Shown: one piece after another, positions 7,436-41,637 of the stretch
How the letters are laid out: each line of letters begins with the position of its first letter
Numbering within the stretch: the stretch's first letter is position 1
Origin: a virus
Lineage: Duplodnaviria; Caudoviricetes
DNA: 64,000 nucleotides
Reading direction: 5' to 3' (one strand)
IMG/VR virus record: IMGVR_UViG_3300036772_000211
Location: 961 to 64,960 of that record
Made by a program: the position numbers and the translations under genes
The notes under the pieces: model-generated
The model's database searches: none
What the model was told of the DNA's origin: nothing
The model's input: only the letters and a program-made list of their open reading frames with translations

Positions 7436-7698
7436 CCAGGCGCTTCGAGCAGGTCGCGCGGCTCGCATTCAAGCGCGTCTGCGAGCTTGCGGACGGTAGA
7501 TGGTAGGGCCTCGCCGCCGTTCTCCAGGCGAGTAACAGTGAACCGCTGGACGCCAGCACGCTTGCCAAGCTCTTCCTGCGACAGCGCGGCCAGGTGGCGC
7601 GCTCGCTTTAGGCCGGGCAGTTTGACCAATCTGACGTCAATCGTACCGTCAGCGTCCCCCGGAAGCACAGTCACGTCTATATCGCGAGGTCGAGTCAT
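7432..7698 (-). CDS. Xre-family HTH regulator, divergent from the T4SS-like operon
   Basis: LKRARHLAALSQEELGKRAGVQRFTVTRLENG..TVRKLADAL. ATG 7698 lies 6 nt after a TACAAT -10 box. Confidence 0.85.
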   Translation of the reverse strand: MTRPRDIDVTVLPGDADGTIDVRLVKLPGLKRARHLAALSQEELGKRAGVQRFTVTRLENGGEALPSTVRKLADALECEPRDLLEAPG

Positions 7699-7744
7699 CA
7701 ATGCATTGTATGTCCGTGGTGCGTTTGCTGTATGCTGGCTGTGC
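7699..7744. promoter_or_regulatory. Divergent leaderless promoters for Xre and the T4SS-like operon
   Basis: Minus-strand TACAAT (7705-7710) is 6 nt from its ATG. Plus-strand TATGCT (7731-7736) is 8 nt from ATG 7745. Palindrome CAATGCATTG at 7699-7708. Confidence 0.6.
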
Positions 7745-8746
7745 ATGATGAAGTGGCTCGCCTGGCCGGTGGGGGTGGTGGCTGCGCTGGTCGTGGTGAC
7801 GGCATACGCGCAGGGCAACCCCATCGTGACCGCGCCACCGAGCAGCAGCAGCACCTCGACGCACATAGACGTGACTGTCCAGGCACCCCCAGAAGATCCG
7901 AAAGCAATCGCGGAGGCAGCGACGCAGTCGTCAGACGCGGTGATCGTGAATGTGCTCGCGCCGATTCCGGTGGGCTTCGTCAAGGGAGCTATCGGCAGCT
8001 TCCCGAACGTGTGGACGCAGACGCCGCCGAACCTTACTTACGCCAACGGCGATCTGTCGCGGCTGGCGGGGGTAGTGCGGGATGGATCGCTGGCGCTGAG
8101 CGGCCTGGCGGTCTTCGCGCTCGGTATGAAGCTGGCGTTCACGCGCACGGCGCCGACGGGGCGACTGCTCTTCGGCGTGGTGATGTGTCTGGGCAACCTT
8201 GTCTGGTGGAAGGTCGGCATTGACCTGAACAACGCGATCAACCAGCAGATCAGCGCGCCGACGTTAGCCAGCCTGCTCAACCCCGGCATGACGCTCCCGA
8301 AGGTCGCGGATGGGACCATCCCCACGCCAGACATCGTCGCCAGCGCTGTGCTGGCCGCGGTCTTCGCGGTTGTCGGATTCCTGACGATGTTCAGTCTGCT
8401 TGCGCGGCTGGCGCTGATCGACATCCTGATCGTCGTCGGACCGCTCGCGCTGATCTGTTTCGCATCAGAAGAGTCGGCCAGCTGGGGCACGATGTACGCG
8501 CGCACGGCAGTGGGGCTGACGTTCAGCCAGGTGCTGATCACGGTCGCGTTCCTCGTGGCGAAAGTACTGGGCGTCCTGGGCACCTCCGGCGTGCTCGGGG
8601 CGATCGTGGGCATCGCGGTGCTGCTGACCATTCGCGGCCTGCCGAGCCTGATGGCATCCGGTCGTATGACGGCTGGGCCAAGCAACAGCGCGGCGTTCGG
8701 CGCCATCCTGGCGTTCGGTCGCCGCGCACTGGGGCTACTGATCTGA
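7745..8746 (+). CDS. VirB6/TrbL-like polytopic membrane protein
   Basis: Signal/TM N-terminus and about six TM helices; the segment ARLALIDILIVVGPLALICF...W...F.Q is typical of TrbL-like proteins. Confidence 0.7.
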   Translation: MMKWLAWPVGVVAALVVVTAYAQGNPIVTAPPSSSSTSTHIDVTVQAPPEDPKAIAEAATQSSDAVIVNVLAPIPVGFVKGAIGSFPNVWTQTPPNLTYANGDLSRLAGVVRDGSLALSGLAVFALGMKLAFTRTAPTGRLLFGVVMCLGNLVWWKVGIDLNNAINQQISAPTLASLLNPGMTLPKVADGTIPTPDIVASAVLAAVFAVVGFLTMFSLLARLALIDILIVVGPLALICFASEESASWGTMYARTAVGLTFSQVLITVAFLVAKVLGVLGTSGVLGAIVGIAVLLTIRGLPSLMASGRMTAGPSNSAAFGAILAFGRRALGLLI

Positions 8747-9354
8747 TGGGCTGGATTGCAGGCGCCGCGGGCGCGTTCTTTGGGATCTTCCTGATGTTCT
8801 GGGTCGGCTTCACCACCCAGCCGTGGTCGCCGTGGTGGATCTCCGGCGGCAGCCAGGACCAGACGGTAGCCGGCGGCGGCGACATCAGCCTGCCAAGCTT
8901 CAGCGTCCCATCCGGTGGCGCTCTGCCGCCTATCTCGGACGCGCCCGCTCCACCTGTCACAGCTGGTCATGTCAGCGACGTGCAGCGCTTCCAGCTGATC
9001 GAGGCAGCTGGAGCTTCGCCACAGGTCGCGATCGTCATGACGGCGCTGAGCATCGCCGAGGATGGCTCGGGCGACCCGTCCATCGTCGGTCCCCCCAACC
9101 GTGACCATTCGGTCGACAACGGACTCTGGCAGGTCAACAGCGGGCACATCGGGCAGTGCGGCATCACCAGCCAGCAGTGGCTCTTCGACCCGATGAACAA
9201 CGCGCGGGCTGCCATGTGCATCCTGGGGCCTGGGCTGAACTACTGCGCCTGGTCGACGTTCGAGGCTAGCTGCGGTGCGGGTCATACGGGCGCGTACCGC
9301 GCGTTCATCGCGGGCGCGACGTTCATCGCGCAGGGGCAAACATGGCAGCACTGA
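8746..9354 (+). CDS. Membrane-anchored lysozyme-fold transglycosylase (VirB1 analogue)
   Basis: N-terminal TM; AED..GDP..GLWQVN..LFDPMNNARAA..WST motif set. Confidence 0.8.
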   Translation: MGWIAGAAGAFFGIFLMFWVGFTTQPWSPWWISGGSQDQTVAGGGDISLPSFSVPSGGALPPISDAPAPPVTAGHVSDVQRFQLIEAAGASPQVAIVMTALSIAEDGSGDPSIVGPPNRDHSVDNGLWQVNSGHIGQCGITSQQWLFDPMNNARAAMCILGPGLNYCAWSTFEASCGAGHTGAYRAFIAGATFIAQGQTWQH

Positions 9355-9611
9355 TCGCGCTTCTGATGGTGGCTCAGCAGCTGCTGAGCGTTCCTGGGTT
9401 CCTCACCGAGATCGTGCCAGGCGACCTCGATACGACAGTGCTGCAGGTCGACCAGACCAGCTACGAGATCGCGTTCGGACCAGGGTGCGAGGACTTCCAG
9501 CCCGGAATGGACGTGCTGGTGGAGGCAGGAAGCGGCGGCGTGGCCACGCTTTACGACGACAGCGGAAGCGGGCAGTGCAACGTGCTGATCGGAGCACCGG
9601 TCGGCGAATGA
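9342..9611 (+). CDS. Small exported acidic protein
   Basis: Signal-like N-terminus, two Cys, overlaps both neighbours. Confidence 0.55.
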   Translation: MAALIALLMVAQQLLSVPGFLTEIVPGDLDTTVLQVDQTSYEIAFGPGCEDFQPGMDVLVEAGSGGVATLYDDSGSGQCNVLIGAPVGE

Positions 9612-9712
9612 ACTGGAGGGTGCTCAGGGGTTGGGTGGTGGTGGTGGTCATCGTATCCATTGACGTGCTGGGGTGCGCATTCATCGCACAGCACATCATT
9701 TCGGGAGGTTAG
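9608..9712 (+). CDS. 34-aa single-TM peptide
   Basis: ATGA overlap; MNWRVLRGWVVVVVIVSIDVLGCAFIAQHIISGG. Confidence 0.45.
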   Translation: MNWRVLRGWVVVVVIVSIDVLGCAFIAQHIISGG

Positions 9713-9717
9713 CGTTC

Positions 9718-9927
9718 ATGTTCGGTCCTATCGTCAACATCCTGAATCAGATCCTGACGTCGGCTCAGCCAATCATCGCGCCACTGATCGGCCTGGCGCT
9801 GCTGATGTACGGCGCCATCCTGGCGGCTGGCAACCACGCCAAGGCGCGCGAGGGCATCATCTGCGCCATCATCGGCGGTGCCATCATGCTCGGCTCACAG
9901 CAGATCGCTGCGGCGATCCATCCGTAG
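9718..9927 (+). CDS. VirB2/TrbC-like pilin
   Basis: GGAGG RBS; 69 aa with two hydrophobic helices separated by a charged loop (GNHAKARE), the pilin pattern. Confidence 0.75.
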   Translation: MFGPIVNILNQILTSAQPIIAPLIGLALLMYGAILAAGNHAKAREGIICAIIGGAIMLGSQQIAAAIHP

Positions 9928-9928
9928 T

Positions 9929-10519
9929 GTGCGAGACGATGAGCAGCCAGCCGTCTACATCGTTCCGACCGAACTCGGCCGCTCGGATGCATTCAACGAC
10001 CTGGCTTTCCTGGCAGTATCGTTTCTGGTCATCTGGTGGCTGTTCCAGCGTGGGCTGCCATTGTGGACAGGCGCCGTGGTGCTGCCCTTCGTGGCGATTG
10101 AGACGCTCACTTCTGAAGCTGCCGAGTCTGTCGCGTGGGTCGGCGATTTTGCGCAGGTACTGCGGATGGTCTTCGGCCACAGGCGGGCGCACGAATGGGC
10201 TTTAGCTTTCGGCCATCACGTGCAAAGCGTGACGTGGCGCCGGTGGAACCATCGTGCCAGGGCACGCTGGAGATCACTCCTACGTCGAACGCTCCGATGG
10301 GTTCGGCGGCAGAACGCGAGGACGCGGCGGATGCTTTCGCGCGCGTGCTCATGGGCCTCAGCTACCCGCTCCAGATTGTCAGCCAGGCTCGCGAGATCCA
10401 GAACCCGCCGGAGTGGCGCAAGCCACCCCGTCTCCGTCGACGCTGGCTGGCTGTCTTACGCGGCAAAGATGCGGCGGAACGGGACTGGCGACTCCGAACA
10501 CTCGAAGAGTCGCTCATAG
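9929..10519 (+). CDS. PrgI/VirB3-like membrane protein
   Basis: YIVPTEL..D followed by two TM segments; sits between pilin and VirB4 and overlaps the VirB4 start. Confidence 0.55.
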   Translation: MRDDEQPAVYIVPTELGRSDAFNDLAFLAVSFLVIWWLFQRGLPLWTGAVVLPFVAIETLTSEAAESVAWVGDFAQVLRMVFGHRRAHEWALAFGHHVQSVTWRRWNHRARARWRSLLRRTLRWVRRQNARTRRMLSRACSWASATRSRLSARLARSRTRRSGASHPVSVDAGWLSYAAKMRRNGTGDSEHSKSRS

Positions 10520-11970
10520 GAGTAGGGCTGCATGCCAGAGTGGCTGATCCAGGCGACGTCAGTGGACATGCGAGGCGTGTTCATTCTTCTTTTGCTTTCG
10601 TGGACGGTGACCCTAACCCTTATCACGGTACGCTGGTGCTCCGACGATGGCCGCGAGAAGTCTCAGTCGGATGGCTCGGCAACGCTACCGCGGGGGAACT
10701 CCCCATCGACTGGGCGATGCATGTCCGCCCAGAGGACGCGAAGGCGGTAGCGCGCTACCTGAAGCGCCAGCAGTCCTGGCAGAGCGACCAGTACAGCCTC
10801 AAGCCTGACGCGCACAACGCGCTCGGGCGCCGCGACGCCCAGGAGACACAGCGCAAGCTGATCGCGGGCACTGATCGTCCGGTGAAGGTTGCTGTCGCGT
10901 TCACGGTGGCAGCCCCGTCCGAAGCAGAGTTGAAGGTGCGGATGGAAACAGCGCGGCACCAGATCGGCCTCACGCTGGGTGACGCTCGCGCGGCACGCTG
11001 GGAGATGGCCCGTGGCTACCAGGCGACGTCACCCGAAGGGGTCTGCGACCTGCTGGGCGCGTGGCGACGGCTGGACTGCACGTCGGTAGCTTCGGCGTGG
11101 CCATTCATGCCGGCCACGGTGTGGCACGAGCACGGCGCACCGCTGGGCACCACCCACAAGGGTGCGATGGAAGTGCGGCTCGATCCATTCGATGAGTCGC
11201 TGGAGAGCTTCGGTGGTCTGATCCTGGCCAAGGTCGGCGCGGGCAAGAGCTACCTGCTCAAGCTGCTGACACTGCGGTTGCCAGATGTCGAGATGCTCAT
11301 TGTCGAACAGCGCAACCCACCTGAATACCGCGGGATGCGAGCGACGACGATCAACCTGGCCGACCACGAGTACCACGAGCGAGCCGCGAAGCTGCGCGAG
11401 TTCGTAGAGAACATCTGGGAGACAGCCAAGCGCGACCCGCGCCCGCGACTGCTGGTGCTGGACGAGTTATGGAGCTTGCTGCTGGATGGCAACATGGCGC
11501 GCCTCGTAGAAGAGATCGCGCGCATCGGCAGGCACCACTACCTGAGCATGTGGATTGCGACGCAGCAGGTACAGGAAATGCTGGGCAGCCAGGAGCGCCC
11601 GTGTCGTGAGGGCCGCGCGGTGCTCGACAATGCCGCCATCCGCATCTTCCTGAAGCAGCACGACCGCGACCTGGCGAGTATCGCCGATGCGGTTGGCCTG
11701 TCGAAGACCGCGCGGCGGTACGTTCGTTCGGCAGCCCGCGGGCAAGCGCTCCTGAGCGTGAATGACTTACTCGTCCCGGTTGACATTCAAGCAACAATGC
11801 GGGAGCATCAATTAATCTCAACCGACCCCCGTGAACGCCATGCTGCTGCTACGAATCCCCTGGCTGATCCTGAAGGTGACCTTCCTGATTCTCTGGAAGG
11901 TGCTGGTGGTCCTTGGGTTCCTCGTGGTCGCACTGGTGATCCTGTTGGACTCGGGGCGTCCGCAGGTTGA
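10195..11970 (+). CDS. virB4: Compact VirB4-family ATPase
   Basis: Walker A AKVGAGKS, Walker B LLVLDE, R.GRH..LSMWIATQ, NAAIRIFLKQ and RGQAL motifs. Start is uncertain (10135 or 10195). Confidence 0.8.
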   Translation: MGFSFRPSRAKRDVAPVEPSCQGTLEITPTSNAPMGSAAEREDAADAFARVLMGLSYPLQIVSQAREIQNPPEWRKPPRLRRRWLAVLRGKDAAERDWRLRTLEESLIGVGLHARVADPGDVSGHARRVHSSFAFVDGDPNPYHGTLVLRRWPREVSVGWLGNATAGELPIDWAMHVRPEDAKAVARYLKRQQSWQSDQYSLKPDAHNALGRRDAQETQRKLIAGTDRPVKVAVAFTVAAPSEAELKVRMETARHQIGLTLGDARAARWEMARGYQATSPEGVCDLLGAWRRLDCTSVASAWPFMPATVWHEHGAPLGTTHKGAMEVRLDPFDESLESFGGLILAKVGAGKSYLLKLLTLRLPDVEMLIVEQRNPPEYRGMRATTINLADHEYHERAAKLREFVENIWETAKRDPRPRLLVLDELWSLLLDGNMARLVEEIARIGRHHYLSMWIATQQVQEMLGSQERPCREGRAVLDNAAIRIFLKQHDRDLASIADAVGLSKTARRYVRSAARGQALLSVNDLLVPVDIQATMREHQLISTDPRERHAAATNPLADPEGDLPDSLEGAGGPWVPRGRTGDPVGLGASAG

Positions 11971-11980
11971 CCTACGTTGA
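11840..11980 (+). CDS. Hidden 46-aa hydrophobic membrane peptide overlapping the VirB4 3' end
   Basis: Manual translation MLLLRIPWLILKVTFLILWKVLVVLGFLVVALVILLDSGRPQVDLR; too short for the ORF track. Confidence 0.5.
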   Translation: MLLLRIPWLILKVTFLILWKVLVVLGFLVVALVILLDSGRPQVDLR

Positions 11981-13664
11981 GCCGACACGCGCTCTGCTAG
12001 CTGGCGCGTGGGCTGAGCCTGCGACTCGACTCCCACTGGTTCTCCTGGCCATAGGAGTCTTCTTGTTGCTCTTCTGGCGACCTGGCCAGCAAGGCGCCCA
12101 GCAGCGCTCGAAGCTGCAGACAGAAGAGCGAGACGTCAGGCGTCCGACGAACACCGTGTGGTGGAAGCGCTGGTGGTGGAAGCTGCGCCCGCCTGTGGAC
12201 ACGATGGCTGTCGACGGTCTGGTGATCGAGCGCACCGGGCGCCGCTCGCACTGCCTGTGGCTGGGACCGACCGGCGCAGGCAAGAGCCAGAGCGTAGCCA
12301 CGGTACGGGTGAATCACCAGCGGCCCATGCTCATCGTCACGCCAGACCTGAGCGACCCCTTCATTCCGCTCGCGGACTTCCACTGGACAGCTGGCGGCAA
12401 GCGATCGGTGGACTTCCTGATCGGCACGCCCGAGCAGGTAGCCGAGCGGCTGACTGAGGTCTTCCGCAGCGGTGGCAATGGCGTGTGGAAGATGACCGCC
12501 AGGCGCGCGGTCACGGCCATCATCTACGTGCTCGATTCGATGCGCGAGCCGCGGACGCTGCAGGCGATCGGCGAGATGCTGGCCGACGAGGTGAAGGATG
12601 ACCGCGAGCTACGCACGGCGTGTGCTGGCTGGGTGGAGCGGTTCCTGTCGACGGCGCAGCAGTTCGGGGAGAGCATCGGCGCCGGTGGCGTGGACGTCGC
12701 CGAGCTTCTGCTGCAAGGCAAGACGGTGCTGCTGGACAACGATGCCTTCGCTCACCCCGGCCTGGTGGGCGACGTGGTCGCGTTCGGGCTGGCTGAGGCC
12801 AAGCGCTGTGCTGACCGCGTGCCTGGCGGCTTCCGCCTGATTTTCGAGGAGGCTGGCCAGCTTGGCGATCGCATCGACCTGGCCGATCCCTTCTTCCGCG
12901 CGGGTCGACGGCGGCGCATCGCTGTAGATGCCCTCACACAGGCAGAAAGCGACCTCAATGACGCGATTAGCCAGAATGCGGCCACAAGGGTGTATTTCAG
13001 CCAGGAGCTTCAGAACCTCCAGAAAGCGGCCGCAAATCGCCTGTCTATGGACTGGCACGATCTGGACCCCGCGGTGATGCAGGACTTCACAGCGTGGATC
13101 ACCAGTGGCAAGATCCGCCGCCTTGTTCACTTCCCGAAGCCCAGGAATGCACGTCCACCTGTGACGGTGGGCATCTCCTACGAAGCTACGGATGGACGTT
13201 CACAGGTGGACGTGCGTCTGGTGGTGACCGAACAGAAGCGCTGGAAGGGCACAGGCGAAGCGGTTGACGTCGAATGGAACGGACCAAGAATGCTGCCGCC
13301 TCCGCAGGTACGGTTTCAGAAGCTCGTGGACGGGGCCTATCGGGATGGGGCGTGCTTACGGTGGAAGGCTCATCTGCGGCATGACAAGGATGGCTATGGC
13401 GAGGTGTGGATCGACGGGGAAGGTCGGTACATGAAGGTGCATCGTCTGGCCTACGAGCTTGCGTATGGAGCGATCCCGCGGAACCCTGACGGAACGACCA
13501 TGACGGTTGACCATCTGAGCGGGGTGTGCCAGCACAAGGATTGCTTCGAGCTAACGCACCTCGAACTGGTGACACGTGCAAAGAACAGCAGTAGACGGCA
13601 GGCCGCTGCGAAGGCTCGGCCGAAGGCTGGGGGGTCTGGGGGGAGACACGCCGGGATTGGCTGA
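11967..13664 (+). CDS. virD4: VirD4/TrwB-like coupling ATPase fused to a C-terminal HNH endonuclease
   Basis: N-terminal TM, Walker A GPTGAGKS, Walker B LIFEEAG, AGRRR..ALTQ. C-terminal GYG..HRLAY..G.IP..DH..C..C..HLELVT..N. Confidence 0.75.
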   Translation: MTYVEPTRALLAGAWAEPATRLPLVLLAIGVFLLLFWRPGQQGAQQRSKLQTEERDVRRPTNTVWWKRWWWKLRPPVDTMAVDGLVIERTGRRSHCLWLGPTGAGKSQSVATVRVNHQRPMLIVTPDLSDPFIPLADFHWTAGGKRSVDFLIGTPEQVAERLTEVFRSGGNGVWKMTARRAVTAIIYVLDSMREPRTLQAIGEMLADEVKDDRELRTACAGWVERFLSTAQQFGESIGAGGVDVAELLLQGKTVLLDNDAFAHPGLVGDVVAFGLAEAKRCADRVPGGFRLIFEEAGQLGDRIDLADPFFRAGRRRRIAVDALTQAESDLNDAISQNAATRVYFSQELQNLQKAAANRLSMDWHDLDPAVMQDFTAWITSGKIRRLVHFPKPRNARPPVTVGISYEATDGRSQVDVRLVVTEQKRWKGTGEAVDVEWNGPRMLPPPQVRFQKLVDGAYRDGACLRWKAHLRHDKDGYGEVWIDGEGRYMKVHRLAYELAYGAIPRNPDGTTMTVDHLSGVCQHKDCFELTHLELVTRAKNSSRRQAAAKARPKAGGSGGRHAGIG

Positions 13665-16600: not shown

Positions 16601-17487
16601 GCACTGTAATTCCAGCGGCTGGACATGTTGGCGCCCAGGTTGCCGAAGAAGATGTCGTGCTCGCTGCATTGGAACGCCGAGCGGGCCACGACGAAGTCGC
16701 CCGAGAAGCCGGCCTGGTAGGTGGTGTTGCAGACGCCGTGATTGGGGCCGATGAACTGGCAGTCCCAGATCCAGTTATCCAGACTGTTGAAGTTGTAGGT
16801 CATGATGCCGACCACGTCGGGGTTGGTGTTCCCCGTGATCGGGTTCTTGCTGCCGTAGGGGTTCTGCGCGTAGTTGAAATAGCAGCGCATGATCGACGTC
16901 TCGGACGCGCCGAAGCCGTAGACGCCGAGCATCAGGCCCGCGGTTTCGGACTGGGGACCGCTCTGATTAGAGACGCCGAGCAGGTTGACGAAGCCGAGAT
17001 CTTCGTAGCGGTTGCCGGTCGGAAAGTACTGATTGTCAGGTGTCGGCGCGCCGTCGATCGAGTGGTACGCATCCATGACCCCAACGTTGGCGATGCCGGC
17101 GCCGTCGAAGGTCAGCCGCGCCAGCCGCAACTGGGTGACCCCATTGTGGACGAGCATGATCGCGTCATTGGTCGCGCCGCTACTGTTGGGCGGCGGGCCA
17201 ACCCACTGGATGACCGTGTCGTCTCTGGAGTGGCCGACGATCATCGGGCCGATCAGCCCTTGCCCCACGGGTCGATACGCCGCGTCACCATAGCCGGTGC
17301 CCATACCCAGCGTGGCGTTCTGGTAGTAGCGGCCCGGGTTCACGTAGTACGCGCTGGGGAAGCCGGGTCGGGAGATGTTGGAGCACATCGCCTGCAGCGC
17401 CGCGGTGTCGGTCGCGCCGCTGGTGTCACCGCTGGGGCGGACCTGGCCCCAGCTGGGAAACAGGTGCCCGTGGAACTCTTCCAGCAT
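13681..17487 (-). CDS. 1268-aa multidomain beta-helix (pectate-lyase-like) / Ig-like / lectin-like protein; tailspike or depolymerase-like
   Basis: ATDTAALQA..PGRY and IQSAINSA beta-helix caps; Big_2-like WSTSDATKVTVDQLG..GAATITA; LamG-like C-terminus. Confidence 0.7.
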   Translation of the reverse strand: MLEEFHGHLFPSWGQVRPSGDTSGATDTAALQAMCSNISRPGFPSAYYVNPGRYYQNATLGMGTGYGDAAYRPVGQGLIGPMIVGHSRDDTVIQWVGPPPNSSGATNDAIMLVHNGVTQLRLARLTFDGAGIANVGVMDAYHSIDGAPTPDNQYFPTGNRYEDLGFVNLLGVSNQSGPQSETAGLMLGVYGFGASETSIMRCYFNYAQNPYGSKNPITGNTNPDVVGIMTYNFNSLDNWIWDCQFIGPNHGVCNTTYQAGFSGDFVVARSAFQCSEHDIFFGNLGANMSSRWNYSAPGAWRHVEAQAIGNFIASFTVQGCNIGGKAAEIIQLSNAGPIIMVDNLVGAHGTGGAVAIIAECPYSGDNSSGEQVGINNTYADGSPYFASAFTRTHSISDTFSIAWSDPGFPARPAEPPVVTRTIWDNQSSGGSIQSAINSAQPFDVIHIGAGQIGVSQTIQVPANFPLFFEGDSQYATNLVWSGSGTGPVFMLNLPSQVIFRNMQVQGASIADCFGTSGPNGGGGVIHIDGFANSQAAQVGGILANNLGGIRVDVINSSVSLNEQDGWPGTTGVYGISSENGSTVHVIFGTTGNGNGPFYRCYSGGTIACANIYAENSSRTSNLIAGGGNGTFSLDGGRIVGGAVNVDFSSFSGPSTISNYWLGESCPNVSIKVGNNQLLLGASFGSQAFPGPNPPYVIGGATQYAILNPRQQVDNSGQTTQIAEVSAGVSDQNAYVTSHLAPLRGIKPIDMQANPPANYTQIQFINVTTYNERLSFNLQATGGVVNPALSGNATGQGKASATLSVTGSAVRPRKAIQLMGQWQQSVAASIEFAMVSSSDHISALTGASPTLQISKAGGSFAAPAGTVSEVGGGWYIFHATAVDTNTLGDLAINVTATGGDPTALKEQIVAFNPNATTLGGISPGPYTVNWRGVYSLTNTYAPGDSVDFFGKQYICHTAAAAGVLPTDMSKFVPQDLVGEVVSMTIAPVSWPYPGKTGQLQIQGLFSDDTIRLGLNAYAVWSTSDATKVTVDQLGNYSCLAIGAATITAKLQGVSTTLVITVAHPMFGDGFAGEAVTFPLWGNHFTIDTGSTQTILTGTTPSADNVYAEMSVPPLGGAQAAIDTPGLAPISKIFRFSTVFRLSAWNVTGGACQIIQLVDGSGHGTEIYDFNGAWTIGVSAADGTFLQASLTFQSFAVGTWYQIDLLQDNSGAKSVYRVYVAGVLDTTLNDTTTGTPWQVTGGRLGPAMNPSQPGAGTCTVDYDWAEAYDN

Positions 17488-17516
17488 GCCTGACTGCTAT
17501 TGTCAGGCATGCTGGA
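17480..17516. repeat. Perfect 15-bp inverted repeat covering the start codon of the 1268-aa gene
   Basis: TCCAGCATGCCTGAC-tgctatt-GTCAGGCATGCTGGA. Confidence 0.9.
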
Positions 17517-23797: not shown

Positions 23798-24527
23798 CTA
23801 TGCCGGCGAGGTGAGTTCGAGCATCCAGATCGCGAGCGCGTGCTTGCGCCCGCAGGCGGCACGCCAACCGATGAACCCGCCGTCGGCGTTCACCCAGCCA
23901 TAGACGCTGGCGCAGCGCTTATCGCAGCCGGGTTGCGCACACCAGTACGCGTGGTCCAGGCTGCGCGGGCGCTTCATGCGCAGTAGCTCTTCGCCCGTGG
24001 CGAGCTTGTAGGTGAACAGGCGGGCCATCAGGCTGTCCTGAACCCGATGTCGCTGGCCTGCCAGCTGGCGCCCTGGTCGTGCGAGACGTACAGCACGCCC
24101 GACAGCCAGCCCGTCATGAACGGGTGGCCGACGTAGCTGCTGGCGTCCTGAATGCAGGTCACGAGGTGGCCCGTGCGCAGGCGCACCGTGGTCGGCGTCT
24201 CGAAGCTGCCTTGCGTCGGTTTCATGCGATCTCCTGAGCGTGCAGCCGACCGTCTTCAGTGATACGGCAGGCGTACTTGCCGAGCTTCGGCTCCCATTCG
24301 ATCCAGCCCTTACGCTCGAAGCTGCGCAGGGTGGACGCATCGCCGCTGCCACTGGCCCAGAACACGAACGACTCGTGTCCGATGCTGAAGTATTGGCCCC
24401 GGCCGTCGAGTGACGGCAGCCACGCTGCGCCCTCGAACGCAGCGCAGCGCTGCTCGATCAGCAGCAGGAATTGATCGGCGCGCGTGAGCGCCCGCCCGTC
24501 AGCGTCCCGCGGTACGTTGCCGTTCAT
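23798..24527 (-). other. Three small coupled hypothetical genes (23798-24028, 24028-24225, 24222-24527)
   Basis: Overlapping stop/start junctions. Confidence 0.55.
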
Positions 24528-24988
24528 CGCGTGTACTCCGCGACATTGCACTTGCCCTGGCACTCGTCGCCATTCAGGCAGCCGTCGTGATCATTGGCGC
24601 CGCAGTGCGGGCACTCGACGGGAATCTCAGACTCCATTAGTTGCTCCTCTCGTTTCGCCGCCCACCACTCGCGTTTCCGCTGGGCGATCTTTTCTCGGCG
24701 CTCTGCCGACTGTGGCCCCAGGACCAGGCCGCGGGGTCCACGTAGCCGCCCCTTCTGGGCGGCGTCTCTGGCGTTGATTAGGCGCGTGCCCAGGAACAGG
24801 TGGTCAGGCTCGAAGCACGGCGGGTTGTCGCACGTATGGCAGATCTCCATGCCCGCGGGGATCTGACCATGGATCGTGGCCCATACGAACCGGTGGACGT
24901 ACTGGAGCTTGCCGCCGCGACCCCCAATGCGGATCTGGCCATAGCCGTTCTTCGAACGCGCTCGAAGCCACTCGCGACAAGGCTTCAC
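24524..24988 (-). CDS. HNH endonuclease (free-standing)
   Basis: GYG..HRFVW..G.IP..CHTCDNPPCFEPDHLFLGT..N. Confidence 0.85.
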   Translation of the reverse strand: MKPCREWLRARSKNGYGQIRIGGRGGKLQYVHRFVWATIHGQIPAGMEICHTCDNPPCFEPDHLFLGTRLINARDAAQKGRLRGPRGLVLGPQSAERREKIAQRKREWWAAKREEQLMESEIPVECPHCGANDHDGCLNGDECQGKCNVAEYTR

Positions 24989-28302: not shown

Positions 28303-28339
28303 AAAAACCCGCCTGACGCGGGGAGCCGCCAGGCGGGTA
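28303..28339 (-). terminator. Intrinsic terminator downstream of the integrase
   Basis: ACCCGCCTGGCG..CGTCAGGCGGGT-TTTT on the minus strand. Confidence 0.75.
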
Positions 28340-28340
28340 T

Positions 28341-28448
28341 GTTAGAAACTGGTTAGAAACGTGTTTTCGAGTTGATAACGTGACGCCGTTACACCTGAAC
28401 AAGATTGCGGCTGTAACAGTGTTCGTTTGACGGTTCCGGAGTTAGCGC
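28341..28448. repeat. AT-richer gap with direct repeat GTTAGAAAC x2; candidate integrase arm sites / attP
   Basis: GTTAGAAAC-TG-GTTAGAAAC at 28341-28360, immediately 3' of the integrase. Confidence 0.45.
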
Positions 28449-33052: not shown

Positions 33053-34972
33053 GTGACGTTCACAGCCCCCGCCGAACTCGCCACGCGACCCCAGTGGGTC
33101 GCGTGGCGGATCGAGGATCGCATCGACGCGAAGGGGGAAGTCAAACCTACCAAGGTGCCGTACAACGCGCGCACAGGCAAGCGGGCAGCTAGCACTGACC
33201 CGTCAACCTGGGCGGCGTTCGAGGTGGCTGTGGCGTTCGCAGAGCACGAGCGCATGGGTGGCATCGGCTTCGTGGTCACCAACGATGACCCGTACGTCGG
33301 CGTCGACCTTGATCACTGCCGCGATGATGACACGGGTGCGATCGAAGAGTGGGCTGCCGTGATTGCGATGCAACTCGACAGCTACACAGAGATCAGCCCG
33401 TCGGGCACTGGACTGCGGATCTTCGTCCGCGGCGAGCTACCACCGTTCGGCAAGCGCAAAGGCCACGTCGAGATGTACCAGCACGCGCGCTTCCTGACGG
33501 TGACCGGCAACCATCTCGAAGGCAGCCCCGAAGCCATCGAAGATCGGTGCAGTGAACTGCTCGAACTGCACCACAGCGTCTTCGGAGCGCCGCCGGAGGC
33601 GCGCCAGAACGGTCATGTGGCGGCGCGCCTCCCTCTCGCGCTCGCTGACGCCGACGTGCTCAAGAAGGCTCGCGGCGCGACCAATGGCGAGAAGTTCTGG
33701 GCACTGTGGAACGGTGACTGGTCAGGCAGCTACGACTCGCAGTCCGAAGCTGACCTGGCACTGGTGAGTTACCTGGCGTTCTATACGGGTCCAGACGAAG
33801 CGCGCCTGGATCAGCTGTTCCGCGCGAGCGGCCTGGTGCGTGACAAGTGGGACCGACCTGACTACCGCGGAAGCACGATCAGCAAAGCGCTGGACGGTCG
33901 CACGGAGTTCTATGGTAACGGCAGCCTCGCGCTAGCGCCCAGGCTCAGCGTCAACGGTCTGGTGCATGCCAGCGCTGGTGAGGTTGACCCAGAGACGGGC
34001 GAGGTGGTCAAGCCGCGCCTGATTATCTCGCTAGCTGAGATGGTGAAGGGCGCACCCGAGTCAGACCGCCAGCTTGTCGAAGGCATGCTGTGGGCCGGCC
34101 TGCTGCACTGGCTGTACTCAGGACCAGGCTCAGGCAAGACCATGCTCGCGCTCGCGATGGGCATGCACATCGCGGCTGGCAAGCCGTTCCTGGGCCGTGC
34201 CGTGGAACAGGGCACGGTGCTGCTGGTCGAAGAGGATTCGCCGCGCACCGTTATGCGCGACTACGTTGAGCTTCTGGCGGCAATCTATGACATCGACCTC
34301 GACGGGCTGCCGTTCTATATGAACGACATTCGCGGGCTGAAGATGTCAGACGAAGACGGCTGTAACGCGGTCAAAGAGCTTGTGGCCGCATGCCCGCAGC
34401 AACCGCTGCTGCTGATCCTCGACGCCTGCGAGCGCCTGGTGCCGAGCGCTGACTTCAACAGCCGAGAGCTAGCACCGCTCAAAGATTTCCGCGTGTGGGC
34501 CGAAGAGCAAGCCGTCGCAATGCTGATGATCGACCACACGCGAAAGCCAGGCAATGGCGACAAGATAGACGACATCGACCTGCTCTATGGTGGCCGCTCA
34601 AAGTCCGCGCTCGCGGACATCATGATGTGCATAAAGGGCAGCATCAAAGCTGAGGCTAAGCTGACCTTCCCCAAGCGTCGCGGCGAGGATATCCCAGCTA
34701 TCGATCTGAACTTCGATGCTGCTGGCGGATTCATCTTCAAGCAGGAAGCTGCGCCGCTCAGCGACAACGAACGGCTGATAATCAAAGCCATCAACAATGC
34801 ACCTGGGACGCGGCTAACCAAAGCCGACATCATGAAGGATTCTGGCCTACCAGAAGGCATCGCGAACCGCGCGCTGCAAGCCCTTGTGAAGGCTGGTCGT
34901 ATCGACCGTCAGGGAGCCTCAGTGGCGACCACGTACGGCCTGCGGACTGGCACAGGAGGGTTCTTCAGTTGA
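33053..34972 (+). CDS. Primase-polymerase (NrS-1-like) fused to an AAA/RecA-type helicase and wHTH
   Basis: QWVAW..KVPY..GVDLDHC..YTEISPSGTG..EMY..RFLTVTG; SEAD; Walker A GPGSGKT; IDHTRK. Confidence 0.9.
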   Translation: MTFTAPAELATRPQWVAWRIEDRIDAKGEVKPTKVPYNARTGKRAASTDPSTWAAFEVAVAFAEHERMGGIGFVVTNDDPYVGVDLDHCRDDDTGAIEEWAAVIAMQLDSYTEISPSGTGLRIFVRGELPPFGKRKGHVEMYQHARFLTVTGNHLEGSPEAIEDRCSELLELHHSVFGAPPEARQNGHVAARLPLALADADVLKKARGATNGEKFWALWNGDWSGSYDSQSEADLALVSYLAFYTGPDEARLDQLFRASGLVRDKWDRPDYRGSTISKALDGRTEFYGNGSLALAPRLSVNGLVHASAGEVDPETGEVVKPRLIISLAEMVKGAPESDRQLVEGMLWAGLLHWLYSGPGSGKTMLALAMGMHIAAGKPFLGRAVEQGTVLLVEEDSPRTVMRDYVELLAAIYDIDLDGLPFYMNDIRGLKMSDEDGCNAVKELVAACPQQPLLLILDACERLVPSADFNSRELAPLKDFRVWAEEQAVAMLMIDHTRKPGNGDKIDDIDLLYGGRSKSALADIMMCIKGSIKAEAKLTFPKRRGEDIPAIDLNFDAAGGFIFKQEAAPLSDNERLIIKAINNAPGTRLTKADIMKDSGLPEGIANRALQALVKAGRIDRQGASVATTYGLRTGTGGFFS

Positions 34973-34977
34973 GCGGG

Positions 34978-35144
34978 AAAAGCGTGCTACGGGGCGTGAC
35001 ACGCTTTAGCACGCTCAATCTCAAAAGCGTGCCAAAAGCGTGCTACGACTACAAGATCAATACAGGATCGAGCGTGCTACGTAGCGTGCCAAAAGCGTGC
35101 CAAGCGTGCTACGCCCGAGTTCAAAAGCGTGCTACGGAGCGTGT
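34978..35144. repeat. Iteron array, probable replication origin
   Basis: Eight direct AGCGTGC copies (34981, 35026, 35037, 35071, 35083, 35094, 35103, 35126), mostly (AAA)AGCGTGC(TAC/C), plus inverted copies near 35000-35015. Confidence 0.8.
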
Positions 35145-39560: not shown

Positions 39561-40031
39561 GTGCCACGTGAACGCAAGCCTGCTCGCCACTACGATCCAG
39601 AGACGATCGCGACCGCGATCAGGCGCTACATGGCCGGCGATTCCGCGGTGTCGATCGCTCGCGATCTGGGCGTCACACGCTTCGTCGTCCACGGGTGGAT
39701 CAACCGTCACGACCCGGCGCACGCGCCGGTCCCGCGGCAGATGTACCAGCGCAATGCCGAAGAGCTAGCGCAGCTGGTCTATGACACGGTCACCGAAACC
39801 CTCAACGCAATTAGAGCTAGAGCCATCGCGACTCGCTCGGTGGAGTGGATCACGGCACAATCGGCCAACGACCTTGCCCAGCTGGATGCTGCTCAGTGGG
39901 ACAGAGTCATCCGCATGGTTCAGGCCCTCCGACCTCGCCCGGCAAGTGACGAAGAAGCCGGTGATGCCGCGGACGCCTCAGACGACGAACCTGCGGTTCA
40001 TCGAAACGGAACCGTGGACACCACCGACTGA
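39561..40031 (+). CDS. Terminase small subunit-like HTH protein
   Basis: N-terminal HTH (SIARDLGVTRFVVHGW); overlaps the terminase large subunit gene. Confidence 0.65.
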   Translation: MPRERKPARHYDPETIATAIRRYMAGDSAVSIARDLGVTRFVVHGWINRHDPAHAPVPRQMYQRNAEELAQLVYDTVTETLNAIRARAIATRSVEWITAQSANDLAQLDAAQWDRVIRMVQALRPRPASDEEAGDAADASDDEPAVHRNGTVDTTD

Positions 40032-41637
40032 CGCGCACCCAGGCTGCAGCCTGTTCGAGTTCATCAAGCAAGCCTGGCGCATCCTCGAACCAGCCGAGCC
40101 GTTTGTCGACAACTGGCACCTCCACGAGTTCGTAGAGCACGCCGAAGCCGTCAGCACTAGCAAGCTGGCCGAGTCCAGCCTGCTGATCAACACGCCACCA
40201 GGCACGTCGAAATCGCTGTTCTGGGCCGTGTTCTGGCCAGCCTGGGAATGGACCTGGGCGCCATGGACGAGATGGCTGACGATGTCCTACGACGAGGGCC
40301 TGGCGCTGCGCGACGCGGTCAGGTGCCGTCGGCTGATGCAGACGCAGTGGTATCGCCAGGTGGCCATGAGCGAGCCGTGGGAGTTCGTCGGCGACCAGAA
40401 CGTCAAGGGTAACTACGTCAACGATCGCACGGGCTGGCGCATCGCCACCTCGATCAAGGGCGCCGTCACCGGCAACCACGCGCACCGCGTCATGGTCGAT
40501 GACCCGCACAACGTCAAGAAAGCTGAGTCGGACGCCGAGCGCGAGAACACGCTGAGCATCTGGCGTGAAGCTATCCCGAGCCGCGTGCTGCCAACTGGCA
40601 CCCGCGTGATGATCGGCCAGCGCACCCACGAGCTTGACGCGACCGCGGACTGGCTCGATCGCGAGAAGAGCGACATCCATCACATCGAACTCAAGATGGA
40701 GCACGAGGTGCCGAAAGGGGGTGGTCAACCTGAGCGAGCATCCAGTGAACTGCGTCTGTCAGATGTGCACGATGATTCGCCCGCAGTCTCTGTGGCCGGC
40801 TGGTGCTCGCTGACCAGCCGGCCACATGACCCCAGAGCGAAAGAGGGCGACCTGCTGGTGCCCGACCGCTACCCGCGGTCAGTGCTTGAGAGGCGCAAGA
40901 TCGAGCTAGGCCCGTACGCGTACTCGGCGCAGTACCAGCAGGCACCTACGCCGCGCGCCGGCATGGTTGTCGACCCCAGCTGGATCGTCCAGTCGCCCGA
41001 GCAAATGGACCTGAGCCACTTCGATCTGGTGATGGTCTGGGATCTCAACTACTCCAGCCGCGACGCCAGCGACTGGACGGTAGGCATGATGGCCGCGGTC
41101 GAACGCGTGCCCGACCTGCCGAAGATCCACATCGTCGGCATCTACCGCGACCACCTGTCGTCAGAGATGCACGACAAGGTCATCGCCGATCAGATCGTGC
41201 TCTACAAGCCGCTGATGGTCGGCATCGAGAAGCGCGCCTTCGAGAAACAAGGCGCGACCCAGGATCTGATGCGCCAGGTGATGCTGCGCCTCGATCGAGC
41301 GCGCGTCACGACGAGCCTTGAACCTGTCGACGCCGACGAGGACAAGGTCGCCAGGGCCATGATCATCCCTGGCCGCGCCAAGGCTGGCCTGATCACCGCG
41401 GACAAGCGCGCAGCCTGGTGGAGCGCGTTCAGCCGCGAGCTATCGAGCTTCCCGAAAGGCGCCAACGATGATCAGGTCGACTGCCTGGCGCATCTGGTGC
41501 GCCTGGTCGTGGAGAAGCTCTCGCGTGTGCGTAGCCAGCGGGCGCTGCTCGGCAAGAGCGCGCACATGCAGATCGTTGCCTCAGTGCCGCCGCCCAAGCG
41601 TGAGGGCTGGCAGACGATGGTGGATTCAGTCAGGTGA
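39964..41637 (+). CDS. terL: Terminase large subunit
   Basis: NWH, PPGTSKS, TGNHA, MVDDPH, QRTHE.D, AQYQQAP, WDL..SD, FPKGANDDQVD. Start is uncertain. Confidence 0.95.
   Translation: MPRTPQTTNLRFIETEPWTPPTDAHPGCSLFEFIKQAWRILEPAEPFVDNWHLHEFVEHAEAVSTSKLAESSLLINTPPGTSKSLFWAVFWPAWEWTWAPWTRWLTMSYDEGLALRDAVRCRRLMQTQWYRQVAMSEPWEFVGDQNVKGNYVNDRTGWRIATSIKGAVTGNHAHRVMVDDPHNVKKAESDAERENTLSIWREAIPSRVLPTGTRVMIGQRTHELDATADWLDREKSDIHHIELKMEHEVPKGGGQPERASSELRLSDVHDDSPAVSVAGWCSLTSRPHDPRAKEGDLLVPDRYPRSVLERRKIELGPYAYSAQYQQAPTPRAGMVVDPSWIVQSPEQMDLSHFDLVMVWDLNYSSRDASDWTVGMMAAVERVPDLPKIHIVGIYRDHLSSEMHDKVIADQIVLYKPLMVGIEKRAFEKQGATQDLMRQVMLRLDRARVTTSLEPVDADEDKVARAMIIPGRAKAGLITADKRAAWWSAFSRELSSFPKGANDDQVDCLAHLVRLVVEKLSRVRSQRALLGKSAHMQIVASVPPPKREGWQTMVDSVR

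Follow-up and report, generated by a model that had tools for sequence, protein, structure and literature searches.

Coupling proteins (T4CPs) usually have two transmembrane (TM) helices, and they are thought to receive DNA that has already been nicked by, and attached to, a separate relaxase. Canonical T4SSs recognise this relaxase as a protein pilot. Tyrosine-recombinase-type relaxases have also been described (PMC8152469). Streptomyces TraB, a membrane-associated ATPase of the FtsK/HerA superfamily, is reported to transfer double-stranded DNA from cell to cell in a relaxase-independent manner (PMC4447253), and the endonuclease I-HmuI is described as nicking one strand (PMC3017599, PMC3428280).

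In the present work we have analysed a window of 64,000 nucleotides (positions 961 to 64,960 of IMG/VR record IMGVR_UViG_3300036772_000211) in which a tailed phage encodes a single protein, here called T4CP-HNH, that joins a T4CP-like ATPase to an HNH nuclease. No such ATPase-HNH fusion was found in the published literature. The family has very few members (65 representatives in a set of 1.84 billion proteins) and comes from uncultivated sequence, no cultured isolate carrying it having been found. Based on homology, fold and conservation, we are confident that the ATPase is a divergent T4CP relative on the VirD4/TrwB branch of FtsK-HerA, that it is membrane-anchored and connected by a flexible linker of about 50 aa to an intact HNH_3 domain, and that its gene is the last of a conserved T4SS-like cassette in temperate tailed phages with unrelated virion modules.

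Layout of the ATPase-nuclease gene

The gene and its parts, all on the plus strand, are as follows.

11967..13664, +, T4CP-like ATPase fused to HNH nuclease (T4CP-HNH), 565 aa, last gene of the cassette
12021..12077, +, single N-terminal TM helix, aa 19-37 (hydropathy and AF2 model)
12141..13142, +, ATPase domain, aa 59-392, pLDDT mostly >90
12264-12287, +, Walker A, GPTGAGKS, aa 100-107
12837-12857, +, Walker B, aa 291-297 (RLIFEEAG is aa 290-297)
12906-12914, +, invariant Arg cluster R314-R316
13149..13295, +, disordered variable linker, aa 395-443, about 50 aa
13296..13616, +, HNH_3 / His-Me finger nuclease domain, aa 444-550, pLDDT about 90
13512-13514, +, catalytic His516

The gene starts with TTG, and this codon shares nucleotides with the TGA that ends the preceding ORF (10135..11970). 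The public gene call (P0001) comprises 532 aa and starts 33 codons further downstream, which would cut the TM helix; in the alignment an N-terminal extension of 53-87 aa is retained in homologues. Hydropathy places the helix at aa 19-37, and the AF2 model (pLDDT 83.9) has it at 18-36. The continuous ORF with a TM anchor, Walker A, Walker B and a C-terminal HNH, as described in the initial annotation, is thus present and has one TM helix. The HNH domain is likewise present at the place first given for it (about 13340-13590), but the whole domain is wider, about nt 13296-13616. The linker between the two enzymatic parts is poorly ordered (pLDDT <50 in the model), and among 108 homologues its mean column identity is 0.26 versus 0.74 for the ATPase domain.

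The ATPase domain

Residues K106 of Walker A, E295 of Walker B and R314-R316 are invariant in alignment A1: E295, R314 and R316 occur in all 108 homologues, R315 in 106 and K106 in 104, the four misses being N-terminal fragments.

Curated models did not recognise the protein as a T4CP. Neither the Pfam models TrwB_AAD_bind, T4SS-DNA_transf and TraG-D_C (no match at E<=0.1) nor the NCBIfam T4CP models matched T4CP-HNH, and the ATPase domain is without any Pfam match of its own; only three distant HNH-less relatives (P0148, P0155, P0159) pass the Pfam T4CP models. When an ATPase-only profile was compared by hhalign with three Pfam-positive T4CPs, a probability of 98.7% was obtained (E 3.3e-16, 269 columns), versus 3.2% for the neighbouring VirB4-like family. 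The AF2 model aligned with TrwB in VIA-align with Z 24.5 (rmsd 3.3 A, 320 aligned residues), and both results support the coupling-protein type proposed at the outset. The scores of TrwB, the VirB4 C-terminal domain (Z 24.9) and DndH-C (24.3) are tied, so the fold alone cannot tell these apart. Lower scores were given by HerA (22.6), Cag-beta (21.7), DotL (19.9) and FtsK motors (17), and the fold matches also include SIR2-HerA and DUF4297-HerA.

The HNH domain and the age of the fusion

Pfam HNH_3 matched aa 490-541 (nt 13434-13589) with E 1.4e-7 and 31.5 bits (cut-off 24.8), while PHROG HNH families span aa 441-554 (best E 5e-20). The catalytic residues H516 and N540 are kept in 106/108 and 103/108 homologues, the Cys/His metal (zinc) ligands C463, H492, C526 and H531 in 96, 101, 106 and 104 of the 108, and the complete six-residue motif in 93/108. 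By profile, the domain weakly resembles I-PpoI (E 0.025), and T4CP-HNH showed no sign of a DNA-recognition module such as NUMOD.

Two observations could have undone the fusion, namely close homologues that end before the HNH and a separate internal start at the ATG near 13290 (M441). Only one of the 108 homologues (P0076, 421 aa) stops right after the ATPase domain, and the M441 column is Pro in 67/108 with no conserved internal start. Among 35 distant full-length representatives the HNH is kept in 28, and six lack it, three of these being ordinary T4CPs. Pairwise identities of the ATPase and HNH domains co-vary (Mantel r 0.28 with rows from 102 of the 108 homologues; 0 of 2000 permutations reached this value). 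Since His516 occurs in 106/108 homologues and the HNH in 28/35 distant representatives, with no conserved internal start, the sequences indicate that the fusion is ancient, conserved and under selection, and the in-frame fusion first noticed in a single ORF proved to be real and conserved among homologues.

The initial annotation had added the caveat that the HNH might be a recently captured homing endonuclease. A selfish element of this sort, having entered the 3' end of the ATPase gene without contributing to ATPase function, would suit the HNH_3 type, found in many free-standing phage homing endonucleases and in the free copy at 24524-24988, and would suit the truncated P0076. It is contradicted by the presence of the HNH across close and distant homologues, by the conserved catalytic and zinc-binding residues and by the co-variation of the two domains. 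As for the free copy, the Pfam type is indeed shared, but the identity is only 38% over 61 aa. We therefore find the homing explanation hardly credible. A mobile homing endonuclease was also rejected as a candidate on the grounds that absence of the domain is not sporadic (1/108), M441 is not conserved and the domains co-vary.

Neighbouring genes of the cassette

The cassette runs from a polytopic membrane protein through a TM-anchored SLT protein, two or three small TM proteins and a VirB4-like ATPase to T4CP-HNH.

7487..8746, +, polytopic membrane protein, 419 aa, first cassette gene (hydropathy)
8746..9354, +, TM-anchored lytic-transglycosylase-like protein (Pfam SLT_3)
9342..9611, +, 89-aa protein with one N-terminal hydrophobic helix (ORF list, hydropathy)
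9673..9927, +, 84-aa protein with two TM helices (hydropathy)
9878..10519, +, TM protein ORF conserved in relatives (TM aa 38-56)
10135..11970, +, VirB4-like ATPase, upstream of T4CP-HNH

The first protein exhibited eight partly overlapping hydrophobic windows in the hydropathy scan, corresponding to about 5-6 TM segments. It has no Pfam match, its homologues lie upstream of the cassette in three related loci (L004, 45%; L006, 41%; L005, 28%), and BLASTP against the TrbL_4 protein gp153 of Bacillus phage G gave a weak match (E 0.037); a VirB6/TrbL-like role is a guess. The second protein matched SLT_3 above the cut-off (E 1.8e-12), carries an N-terminal TM segment (aa 4-22) and has homologues in L003 and L004, consistent with a presumed VirB1-type role. 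No relative of the 89-aa protein was detected in the four related loci, and the 84-aa protein has a homologue in L004 (49% over 68 aa). Homologues of the 9878..10519 product in L003, L004 and L006 align to aa 10-178, and one might guess at a VirB3-like role. The boundaries here are uncertain, as the VirB4-like ORF is annotated to begin within the 3' part of this ORF; similarity of the VirB4-like protein to its relatives begins near aa 38-45, and its real start is therefore probably at about 10250-10300.

The VirB4-like ATPase is conserved in all four related loci, in one of them weakly. Its C-terminal part only matched NCBIfam VirB4-type models (best conju_CD1110, E 1.5e-18), far under the cut-off with 66.5 bits versus 325. 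Pfam P-loop_TraG gave 1e-4, and the family profile matched the VirB4 structure 4ag5 in the PDB with E 1.5e-15 over profile positions 360-512 only. About 350 aa at the N-terminus are unassigned.

Genomic context and relaxase search

The record is a complete 65-kb DTR genome of a temperate tailed phage with its own TerL and capsid. The canonical TerL (phrog_38, E 1.2e-56) lies about 26 kb from the cassette, which here directly follows an endolysin-like gene on the late (virion)-gene strand. The segment 34978-35144, earlier put forward as a candidate nick site, resembles replication iterons and lies just 3' of the primase-helicase gene.

The cassette is syntenic in related loci and is shared by four related phages, none of which (0/4) matches the TerL or MCP of the studied phage; G004 has its own TerL, portal and MCP from other PHROG families. 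An integrase (tyrosine recombinase) adjoins the cassette in three of the four relatives. The cassette is codirectional with the integrase in G002 and G004, and convergent with the virion genes in G004.

This context bears on a role in the lytic cycle, where the ATPase-HNH would process phage or host DNA in replication or packaging, with the HNH as terminase cofactor, or degrade the host chromosome, the membrane parts serving for lysis. The position directly after the endolysin-like gene, with the virion genes on that same strand, and the match of the VirB4-like protein to phrog_2666 (labelled 'terminase large subunit', E 1.7e-16) agree with such a role, and phage HNH proteins are described as packaging-machine components (PMC3592412, PMC5304195). 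However, the phage has a canonical TerL of its own, the same cassette accompanies a different TerL family in G004, its orientation is with the integrase in G002 and G004 and against the virion genes in G004, and the TM anchor, the SLT protein and the VirB4-like partner are without any tie to packaging. We regard a lytic-cycle role as improbable.

The main rival to the function favoured below is superinfection exclusion or defence, in which a membrane-anchored translocase-nuclease in the lysogen captures and cuts incoming phage or conjugative DNA, with the remaining proteins of the cassette positioning or gating this enzyme within the envelope. Pairs of FtsK/HerA-type ATPases and nucleases are typical of defence, and the fold list includes SIR2-HerA, DUF4297-HerA and DndH-C. 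The integrase-side position and orientation in relatives (G002, G004) are usual for prophage-expressed accessory genes, and like accessory genes the cassette is swapped among phages with unrelated virion modules. PADLOC 2.0 gave weak matches: T4CP-HNH matched HerA (E 1.9e-4, with no stretch passing alone), and the VirB4-like neighbour matched mad8 (E 1.2e-10) as well as HerA, on the shared ATPase core. There was no convincing system match. In addition, the ATPase profile is closest to T4CPs and not to defence HerA proteins, no known exclusion nuclease depends on a peptidoglycan hydrolase, on a polytopic protein resembling a channel or on a VirB4-like ATPase, and the cassette here follows the lysin on the late-gene strand. 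We judge defence to be rather unlikely; if the cassette does destroy incoming DNA, it would represent a new membrane-level exclusion device.

The relaxase reported missing in the initial annotation was not found: seven Pfam families (PF03432, PF08751, PF02486, PF03389, PF13814, PF07514 and PF01076) were searched in six frames of the whole record without a match at E<=1. A non-canonical relaxase may be present, for example one of the tyrosine-recombinase type, given the recombinase beside the cassette in three of the four relatives.

A putative envelope DNA conduit

The reading of the cassette that we favour, albeit tentatively and with somewhat less than even confidence, is an envelope conduit for DNA, with the HNH creating a DNA end without a relaxase; this confidence concerns the mechanism and not the identity of the protein. 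The cassette would form a conduit across the cell envelope, and the T4CP-like ring would take hold of DNA on the cytoplasmic side. The tethered HNH would then break a strand, by a nick or a cut, and the resulting DNA end would be fed into the ring. With the HNH tethered to the ring, processing and pumping would reside in one polypeptide, rendering a covalently attached relaxase unnecessary. The likely substrate would be the phage or prophage genome, giving it a second, contact-dependent route of spread. An HNH cannot religate DNA, and recircularisation would thus need terminal repeats or other phage functions.

The SLT_3 hydrolase, the TM proteins and the VirB4-like ATPase beside T4CP-HNH were counted in favour of the conduit, together with the coupling-protein identity of the ATPase, the age of the fusion, the lack of a match to the seven relaxase families and the association of the cassette with different virion modules. 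Counted against it were the protein pilot that canonical T4SSs recognise, a possible non-canonical relaxase, the lack of a Pfam or NCBIfam T4CP match, the structural tie with VirB4 and DndH-C, the guessed VirB6-like and VirB3-like roles, and the recognition of the VirB4-like partner only via its C-terminal ATPase part.

A conserved family of coupling-protein-type ATPases with a nuclease of their own and no recognisable relaxase points to another start of DNA translocation, and T4CP-HNH may let the pump cut the DNA being handled. The presence of the cassette in complete tailed-phage genomes, common to unrelated capsids and terminases, raises the question of a second contact-dependent route of spread. 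A further-reaching version, which we consider doubtful, is that some temperate tailed phages are equipped with a compact apparatus for conjugation without a relaxase, so that the genome spreads as a virion or from cell to cell, with the tethered HNH nicking DNA at the channel mouth to start transfer. If true, conjugation would be initiated here in a new manner, and the element, at once phage and conjugative, would itself be of a new kind.

Comparison with known systems

T4CPs (TrwB of R388, VirD4, Cag-beta and DotL) share the ATPase fold with T4CP-HNH: about 320 residues align, and the helical insertion that separates Walker A from Walker B is among them. Also shared are profile homology, an N-terminal membrane anchor and, for the gene, a place directly after that of a VirB4-like ATPase. 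In contrast to them, T4CP-HNH has no Pfam/NCBIfam T4CP match, a single TM helix and a C-terminal HNH, and is encoded by tailed phages, in a genome without a relaxase of the seven Pfam families.

TraB may share its host phylum with T4CP-HNH, for which there are weak Actinomycetota hints, but FtsK motors score below T4CPs against the T4CP-HNH model (Z 17). TraB is not known to carry a nuclease domain or to act together with a VirB4 or SLT cassette.

The cultured Bacillus phage G has the same gene order: gp153 is TrbL-like (TrbL_4, E 1.8e-11), gp155 is VirB4-like, gp156 is a large ATPase and gp157 an HNH protein. Here gp155 exhibits 23.6% identity to the VirB4-like protein of the window over 72% of the latter (E 3e-20). 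On the other hand, phage G is a 497-kb phage, its HNH is a separate gene of subfamily HNH_5/HNH, and gp156 (825 aa) has only sub-threshold HerA and TraG-D_C matches. No homology of T4CP-HNH to these proteins was found by hhalign (5% for gp156, 0.4% for gp157). Phage G was counted for the conduit as an independent parallel in gene order, and the adjacency of the HNH could be due to chance, as HNH genes may be numerous in that genome.

HerA-NurA, SIR2-HerA, DUF4297-HerA and DndFGH likewise couple a ring ATPase of the same superfamily to a nuclease or effector acting on the handled DNA. In these assemblies the effector is a separate subunit, and they are without a membrane anchor and T4SS-like neighbours, whereas the T4CP-HNH profile is nearer to T4CPs. 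Finally, free-standing phage HNH_3 / His-Me finger endonucleases (I-HmuI-type and terminase-associated) have the same Pfam family and motif, but in T4CP-HNH the HNH is permanently joined to a membrane ATPase as its C-terminal domain.

The fused protein and its genomic setting

The source virus record (64,960 bp, of which the window is bases 961-64960) has direct terminal repeats and is rated 100% complete, and its gene content identifies it as a genuine tailed phage. The features considered here are as follows, where T4CP denotes a type IV coupling protein.

7487-8746, polytopic membrane protein, upstream of T4CP-HNH
8746-9354, TM-anchored SLT_3 hydrolase, upstream of T4CP-HNH
9342-9611, 9673-9927 and 9878-10519, small TM proteins, upstream of T4CP-HNH
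10135-11970, VirB4-like ATPase, directly upstream of T4CP-HNH
11967..13664, plus strand, T4CP-HNH fused ORF, 565 aa
13681-17487, minus strand, 1268-aa Big_2-containing gene
24524-24988, minus strand, free-standing HNH_3 endonuclease (E 8e-14), perhaps with a phage zinc finger as its tail
39781-41637, TerL (phrog_38, E 1.2e-56)
50228-56452, 2074-aa protein of internal-virion type carrying a lysin domain (matches to lytic transglycosylase/endolysin-like and to internal virion proteins)
57752-58729, major head protein (phrog_1357, E 1.8e-46)

An integrase, a primase-helicase, a PD-(D/E)XK nuclease and a Cro/CI-type HTH protein are also encoded in the window, and the matches of the 2074-aa protein suggest an ejection protein of the kind known in short-tailed phages. 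Weak hints point to a host among the Actinomycetota: the window has 64% G+C, it contains Pfam DUF6011 and DUF6292 matches, whose range we take to be actinobacterial, the best cultured match of the HNH is a mycobacteriophage, and the Protein Atlas taxa of a homologue fall in line with these.

The fused ORF begins at a TTG that overlaps the TGA ending the ORF upstream of it. The public gene call (P0001, 532 aa) starts 33 codons downstream and would cut the hydrophobic helix; since 53-87 residues precede the ATPase domain in most homologues, and the N-terminal extension is thus kept, the long form of 565 aa was preferred. The TM anchor, Walker motifs and C-terminal HNH domain claimed for 11967-13664 in the initial annotation were all found, at the following residues.

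aa 19-37, single TM helix
aa 100-107, Walker A, GPTGAGKS
aa 290-297, Walker B, RLIFEEAG
aa 441-554, HNH families (PHROG, best E 5e-20)
aa 490-541, HNH_3 (Pfam, E 1.4e-7, above the gathering score)

Between 4400 and 14200, predicted promoters and terminators were no more frequent than in shuffled sequences. The VirB4 label of 10135-11970 refers to the C-terminal ATPase part only, with NCBIfam scores far below cut-offs and a match to PDB 4ag5 at E 1.5e-15. The boundaries of this gene and of 9878-10519 are uncertain from sequence: the latter, whose homologues align over aa 10-178, overlaps the VirB4-like 5' end out of frame with it, the VirB4-like protein resembles its relatives only from aa 38-45 onward, and in one related locus (L006) the VirB4-like gene begins directly 3' of a stop.

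Identity of the ATPase domain

Residues 1-440 of the fused protein had no match in Pfam, NCBIfam or PHROGs. An ATPase-only profile built from five sequences (the window's and those of four viral loci) retrieved only 65 proteins at E<=0.001 from 1.84 billion representatives. When ten chosen distant members of this list were run against Pfam, three without an HNH (P0148, P0155 and P0159) scored above the cut-offs for TrwB_AAD_bind and TraG-D_C, and they are therefore ordinary coupling proteins. The ATPase profile aligned with these three at 98.7% hhalign probability (E 3.3e-16, 269 columns), as against 3.2% with the neighboring VirB4-like family.

An AF2 model of the fused protein, for which 46 of the homologues described below (108 in all) were used, had a mean pLDDT of 83.9; most of the ATPase domain exceeded 90. 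Foldseek matched the model to HerA, TrwB, DndH-C, VirB4 and Cag-beta (E 1e-9 to 1e-7). The structural alignments (VIA-align) gave Z 24.9 for the VirB4 C-terminal domain (3.5 A, 315 aligned), 24.5 for TrwB (3.3 A, 320 aligned), 24.3 for DndH-C, 22.6 for HerA, 21.7 for Cag-beta, 19.9 for DotL and about 17 for FtsK and TcpA; on the predicted model, T4CP and VirB4 are thus not separable by fold alone. Three points favor a divergent T4CP: the result of the profile comparison, membrane anchoring, and the absence of an N-terminal domain of the VirB4 type. We use the label "T4CP-like", rather than that of a filed member, because the curated T4CP models were not passed. As a lead only, the Protein Atlas returned T4CP clusters for the homologue P0068 at 0.88.

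Conservation of the fusion

With aa 1-440 as query and lengths of 310-989 aa accepted, 108 homologues were obtained, nearly all of 520-610 aa, and these were aligned with the window's protein substituted for P0001. The catalytic His516 is present in 106/108, and the other HNH residues are similarly retained (C526 in 106, H531 in 104, N540 in 103, H492 in 101 and C463 in 96), the complete six-residue pattern being found in 93 homologues. Column identity was 0.74 for the ATPase, 0.26 for the linker and 0.52 for the HNH. One homologue (P0076, 421 aa) stops in the linker and has no HNH, and the C-terminus of another (P0016) diverges. An internal start at M441, from which the HNH would be translated separately, had been named as a refuting possibility, and is not borne out by the alignment, where that column holds Pro in 67 of the 108 homologues.

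The distant set consisted of 35 representatives of at least 450 aa (P0107-P0163), searched with an HMM of the family's HNH part. The HNH was found at E<=0.001 in 28 of them, weakly in one, and in none of the remaining six, which comprise three ordinary T4CPs, P0117 (an Arg/Gly-rich tail with the look of a frame error), P0120 (a short low-complexity tail at the end) and the marginal case P0152. From their sequences P0076, P0117 and P0120 are candidate HNH-less forms. Pairwise identities of the ATPase and HNH domains co-vary (Mantel r 0.28, 0/2000 permutations as high; 102 of the 108 rows, six being left out for incomplete domains).

Because the HNH residues are kept, the HNH is widespread within the family, the two domains co-vary and M441 is not conserved, the fusion is, as judged from these comparisons, a defining and selected feature of the family. 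The initial annotation had cautioned that the HNH could be a recently captured homing endonuclease, being of the same type as the free-standing one at 24524-24988; the presence of the domain in most distant representatives and its co-variation with the ATPase argue otherwise, and the free copy shares only 38% identity with the fused HNH over 61 aa. That the HNH is a selfish element is accordingly very improbable, being contradicted by the conservation and co-variation of the fusion.

A PDB profile search with the whole family produced nothing beyond weak matches of the HNH part to I-PpoI, and one with the HNH alone gave rows at chance level only. Cluster look-up of eight homologues returned uninformative names and accessions, one name being 'HNH endonuclease', and one member carried a run-derived id.

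The cassette in other phages

The fused protein was found in four viral records (G001-G004) of 54-78 kb, 96-100% complete, one with terminal repeats. A VirB4-like gene lies upstream of T4CP-HNH in all four (a weak match in G003), the 9878 ORF and the polytopic protein are each conserved in three, and the SLT protein in two; the gene count of G001 is limited by a locus truncated at the contig end. In 3/4 records the cassette has an integrase no more than 2.5 kb away. When all window ORFs of at least 90 aa were compared with the four whole records by tblastn, almost nothing was common beyond the cassette and integrase and, in some, replication genes, and the window's TerL and MCP had no match in any of them. 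G004, the only record examined for its own virion genes, has a TerL (phrog_979), a portal (phrog_2662) and an MCP (phrog_10). The virion genes of the window phage and its relatives differ, so the cassette is common to phages with different virion modules. Aminotransferase- and glycosyltransferase-like genes occur among the structural genes of G004.

These arrangements bear on a role of the cassette in packaging or lysis. Its place after the lysin in the window would fit such a role, which is nevertheless improbable given the separate canonical TerL of the window phage, the TerL of a different family in G004, and the opposite orientation of the cassette in G002 and G004.

Elsewhere, a scan of 185,579 species genomes with the family alignment gave 19 pattern matches and no relative, and scans of metagenome contigs with the family alignment A1 and with the homologue P0089 gave no relative either. 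The ATPase domain had no tblastn match in plasmids, the whole protein matched cultured phages (INPHARED) only through its HNH part (Mycobacterium phage Reindeer gp124), and scans of viral contigs with the distant relatives P0134 and P0122 gave nothing.

Relaxase and candidate DNA sites

The initial annotation had noted a missing relaxase, and this held in the complete record for the seven relaxase Pfam families searched: a six-frame search found none of them at E<=1, while controls matched. MOBC-type and tyrosine-recombinase-type relaxases lie outside that set. The latter exist (PMC8152469, PMC6414798), and an integrase is found near the cassette in relatives.

Three candidate nick sites had been suggested (17480-17516, 28341-28448 and 34978-35144). 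Sequence repeats were found, none of them tied to the cassette. In 34972-35143, directly 3' of the primase-helicase gene (33053-34972), a 14-20-nt repeat with the core AAAAGCGTGCTACG occurs six times in direct orientation; these copies look like replication iterons, and so probably an origin, rather than a transfer nick site. The stretch 17480-17516 is an inverted repeat whose 15-nt arms match perfectly across a 7-nt spacer. It shares bases with the start of the 1268-aa gene and could be an operator or regulatory site. Beside 28341-28448, a 12-nt inverted repeat at 28307-28338 adjoins the integrase gene.

Possible role of the cassette

The data show a T4CP-like ATPase whose motifs are intact, tethered by a disordered stretch to an HNH that is likewise intact; envelope proteins are encoded alongside, a known relaxase is lacking, and the two domains have long been inherited together. 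From this we tentatively infer a possible mechanism. The cassette would be a conduit through the envelope, and the DNA end handled by the ATPase ring would be made by the tethered HNH. The main rival, an exclusion or defense nuclease at the membrane, appears rather unlikely: many HerA-nuclease defense assemblies occur in the fold list, PADLOC matches are present, if weak, and in relatives the cassette adjoins an integrase, but a hydrolase, a channel-like protein and a VirB4-like partner speak against it.

Comparison with known systems

Literature searches, supplements apart, brought up no account of a T4CP fused to an HNH, nor of such a T4SS-like cassette in a tailed phage. Passages of PMC7969092 and PMC12282955, papers on phage-plasmids and plasmid mobility, mention neither; the CONJscan supplementary tables of PMC7969092 could bear on this. 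The parts belong to known families, and what is new is the obligatory fusion, the missing relaxase and the phage setting.

Bacillus phage G, a cultured phage of 497 kb, has a comparable gene row (locus L025, record 87772-93838), of which the portions of the literature covered contain no discussion. Its order is a TrbL_4 protein (gp153), gp155, an 825-aa ATPase (gp156) and an HNH gene (gp157). The protein gp155 is a relative of the window's VirB4-like protein (23.6% identity over 72% of the query, E 3e-20), whereas gp156 has sub-threshold HerA and TraG-D_C matches, and the HNH of gp157 is a separate gene of another subfamily than the window's HNH. Alignment of the window's protein to gp156 and gp157 by hhalign was not significant. 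By analogy of gene order, the phage G row may be regarded as a parallel to the window cassette, rather than as a proven relative.
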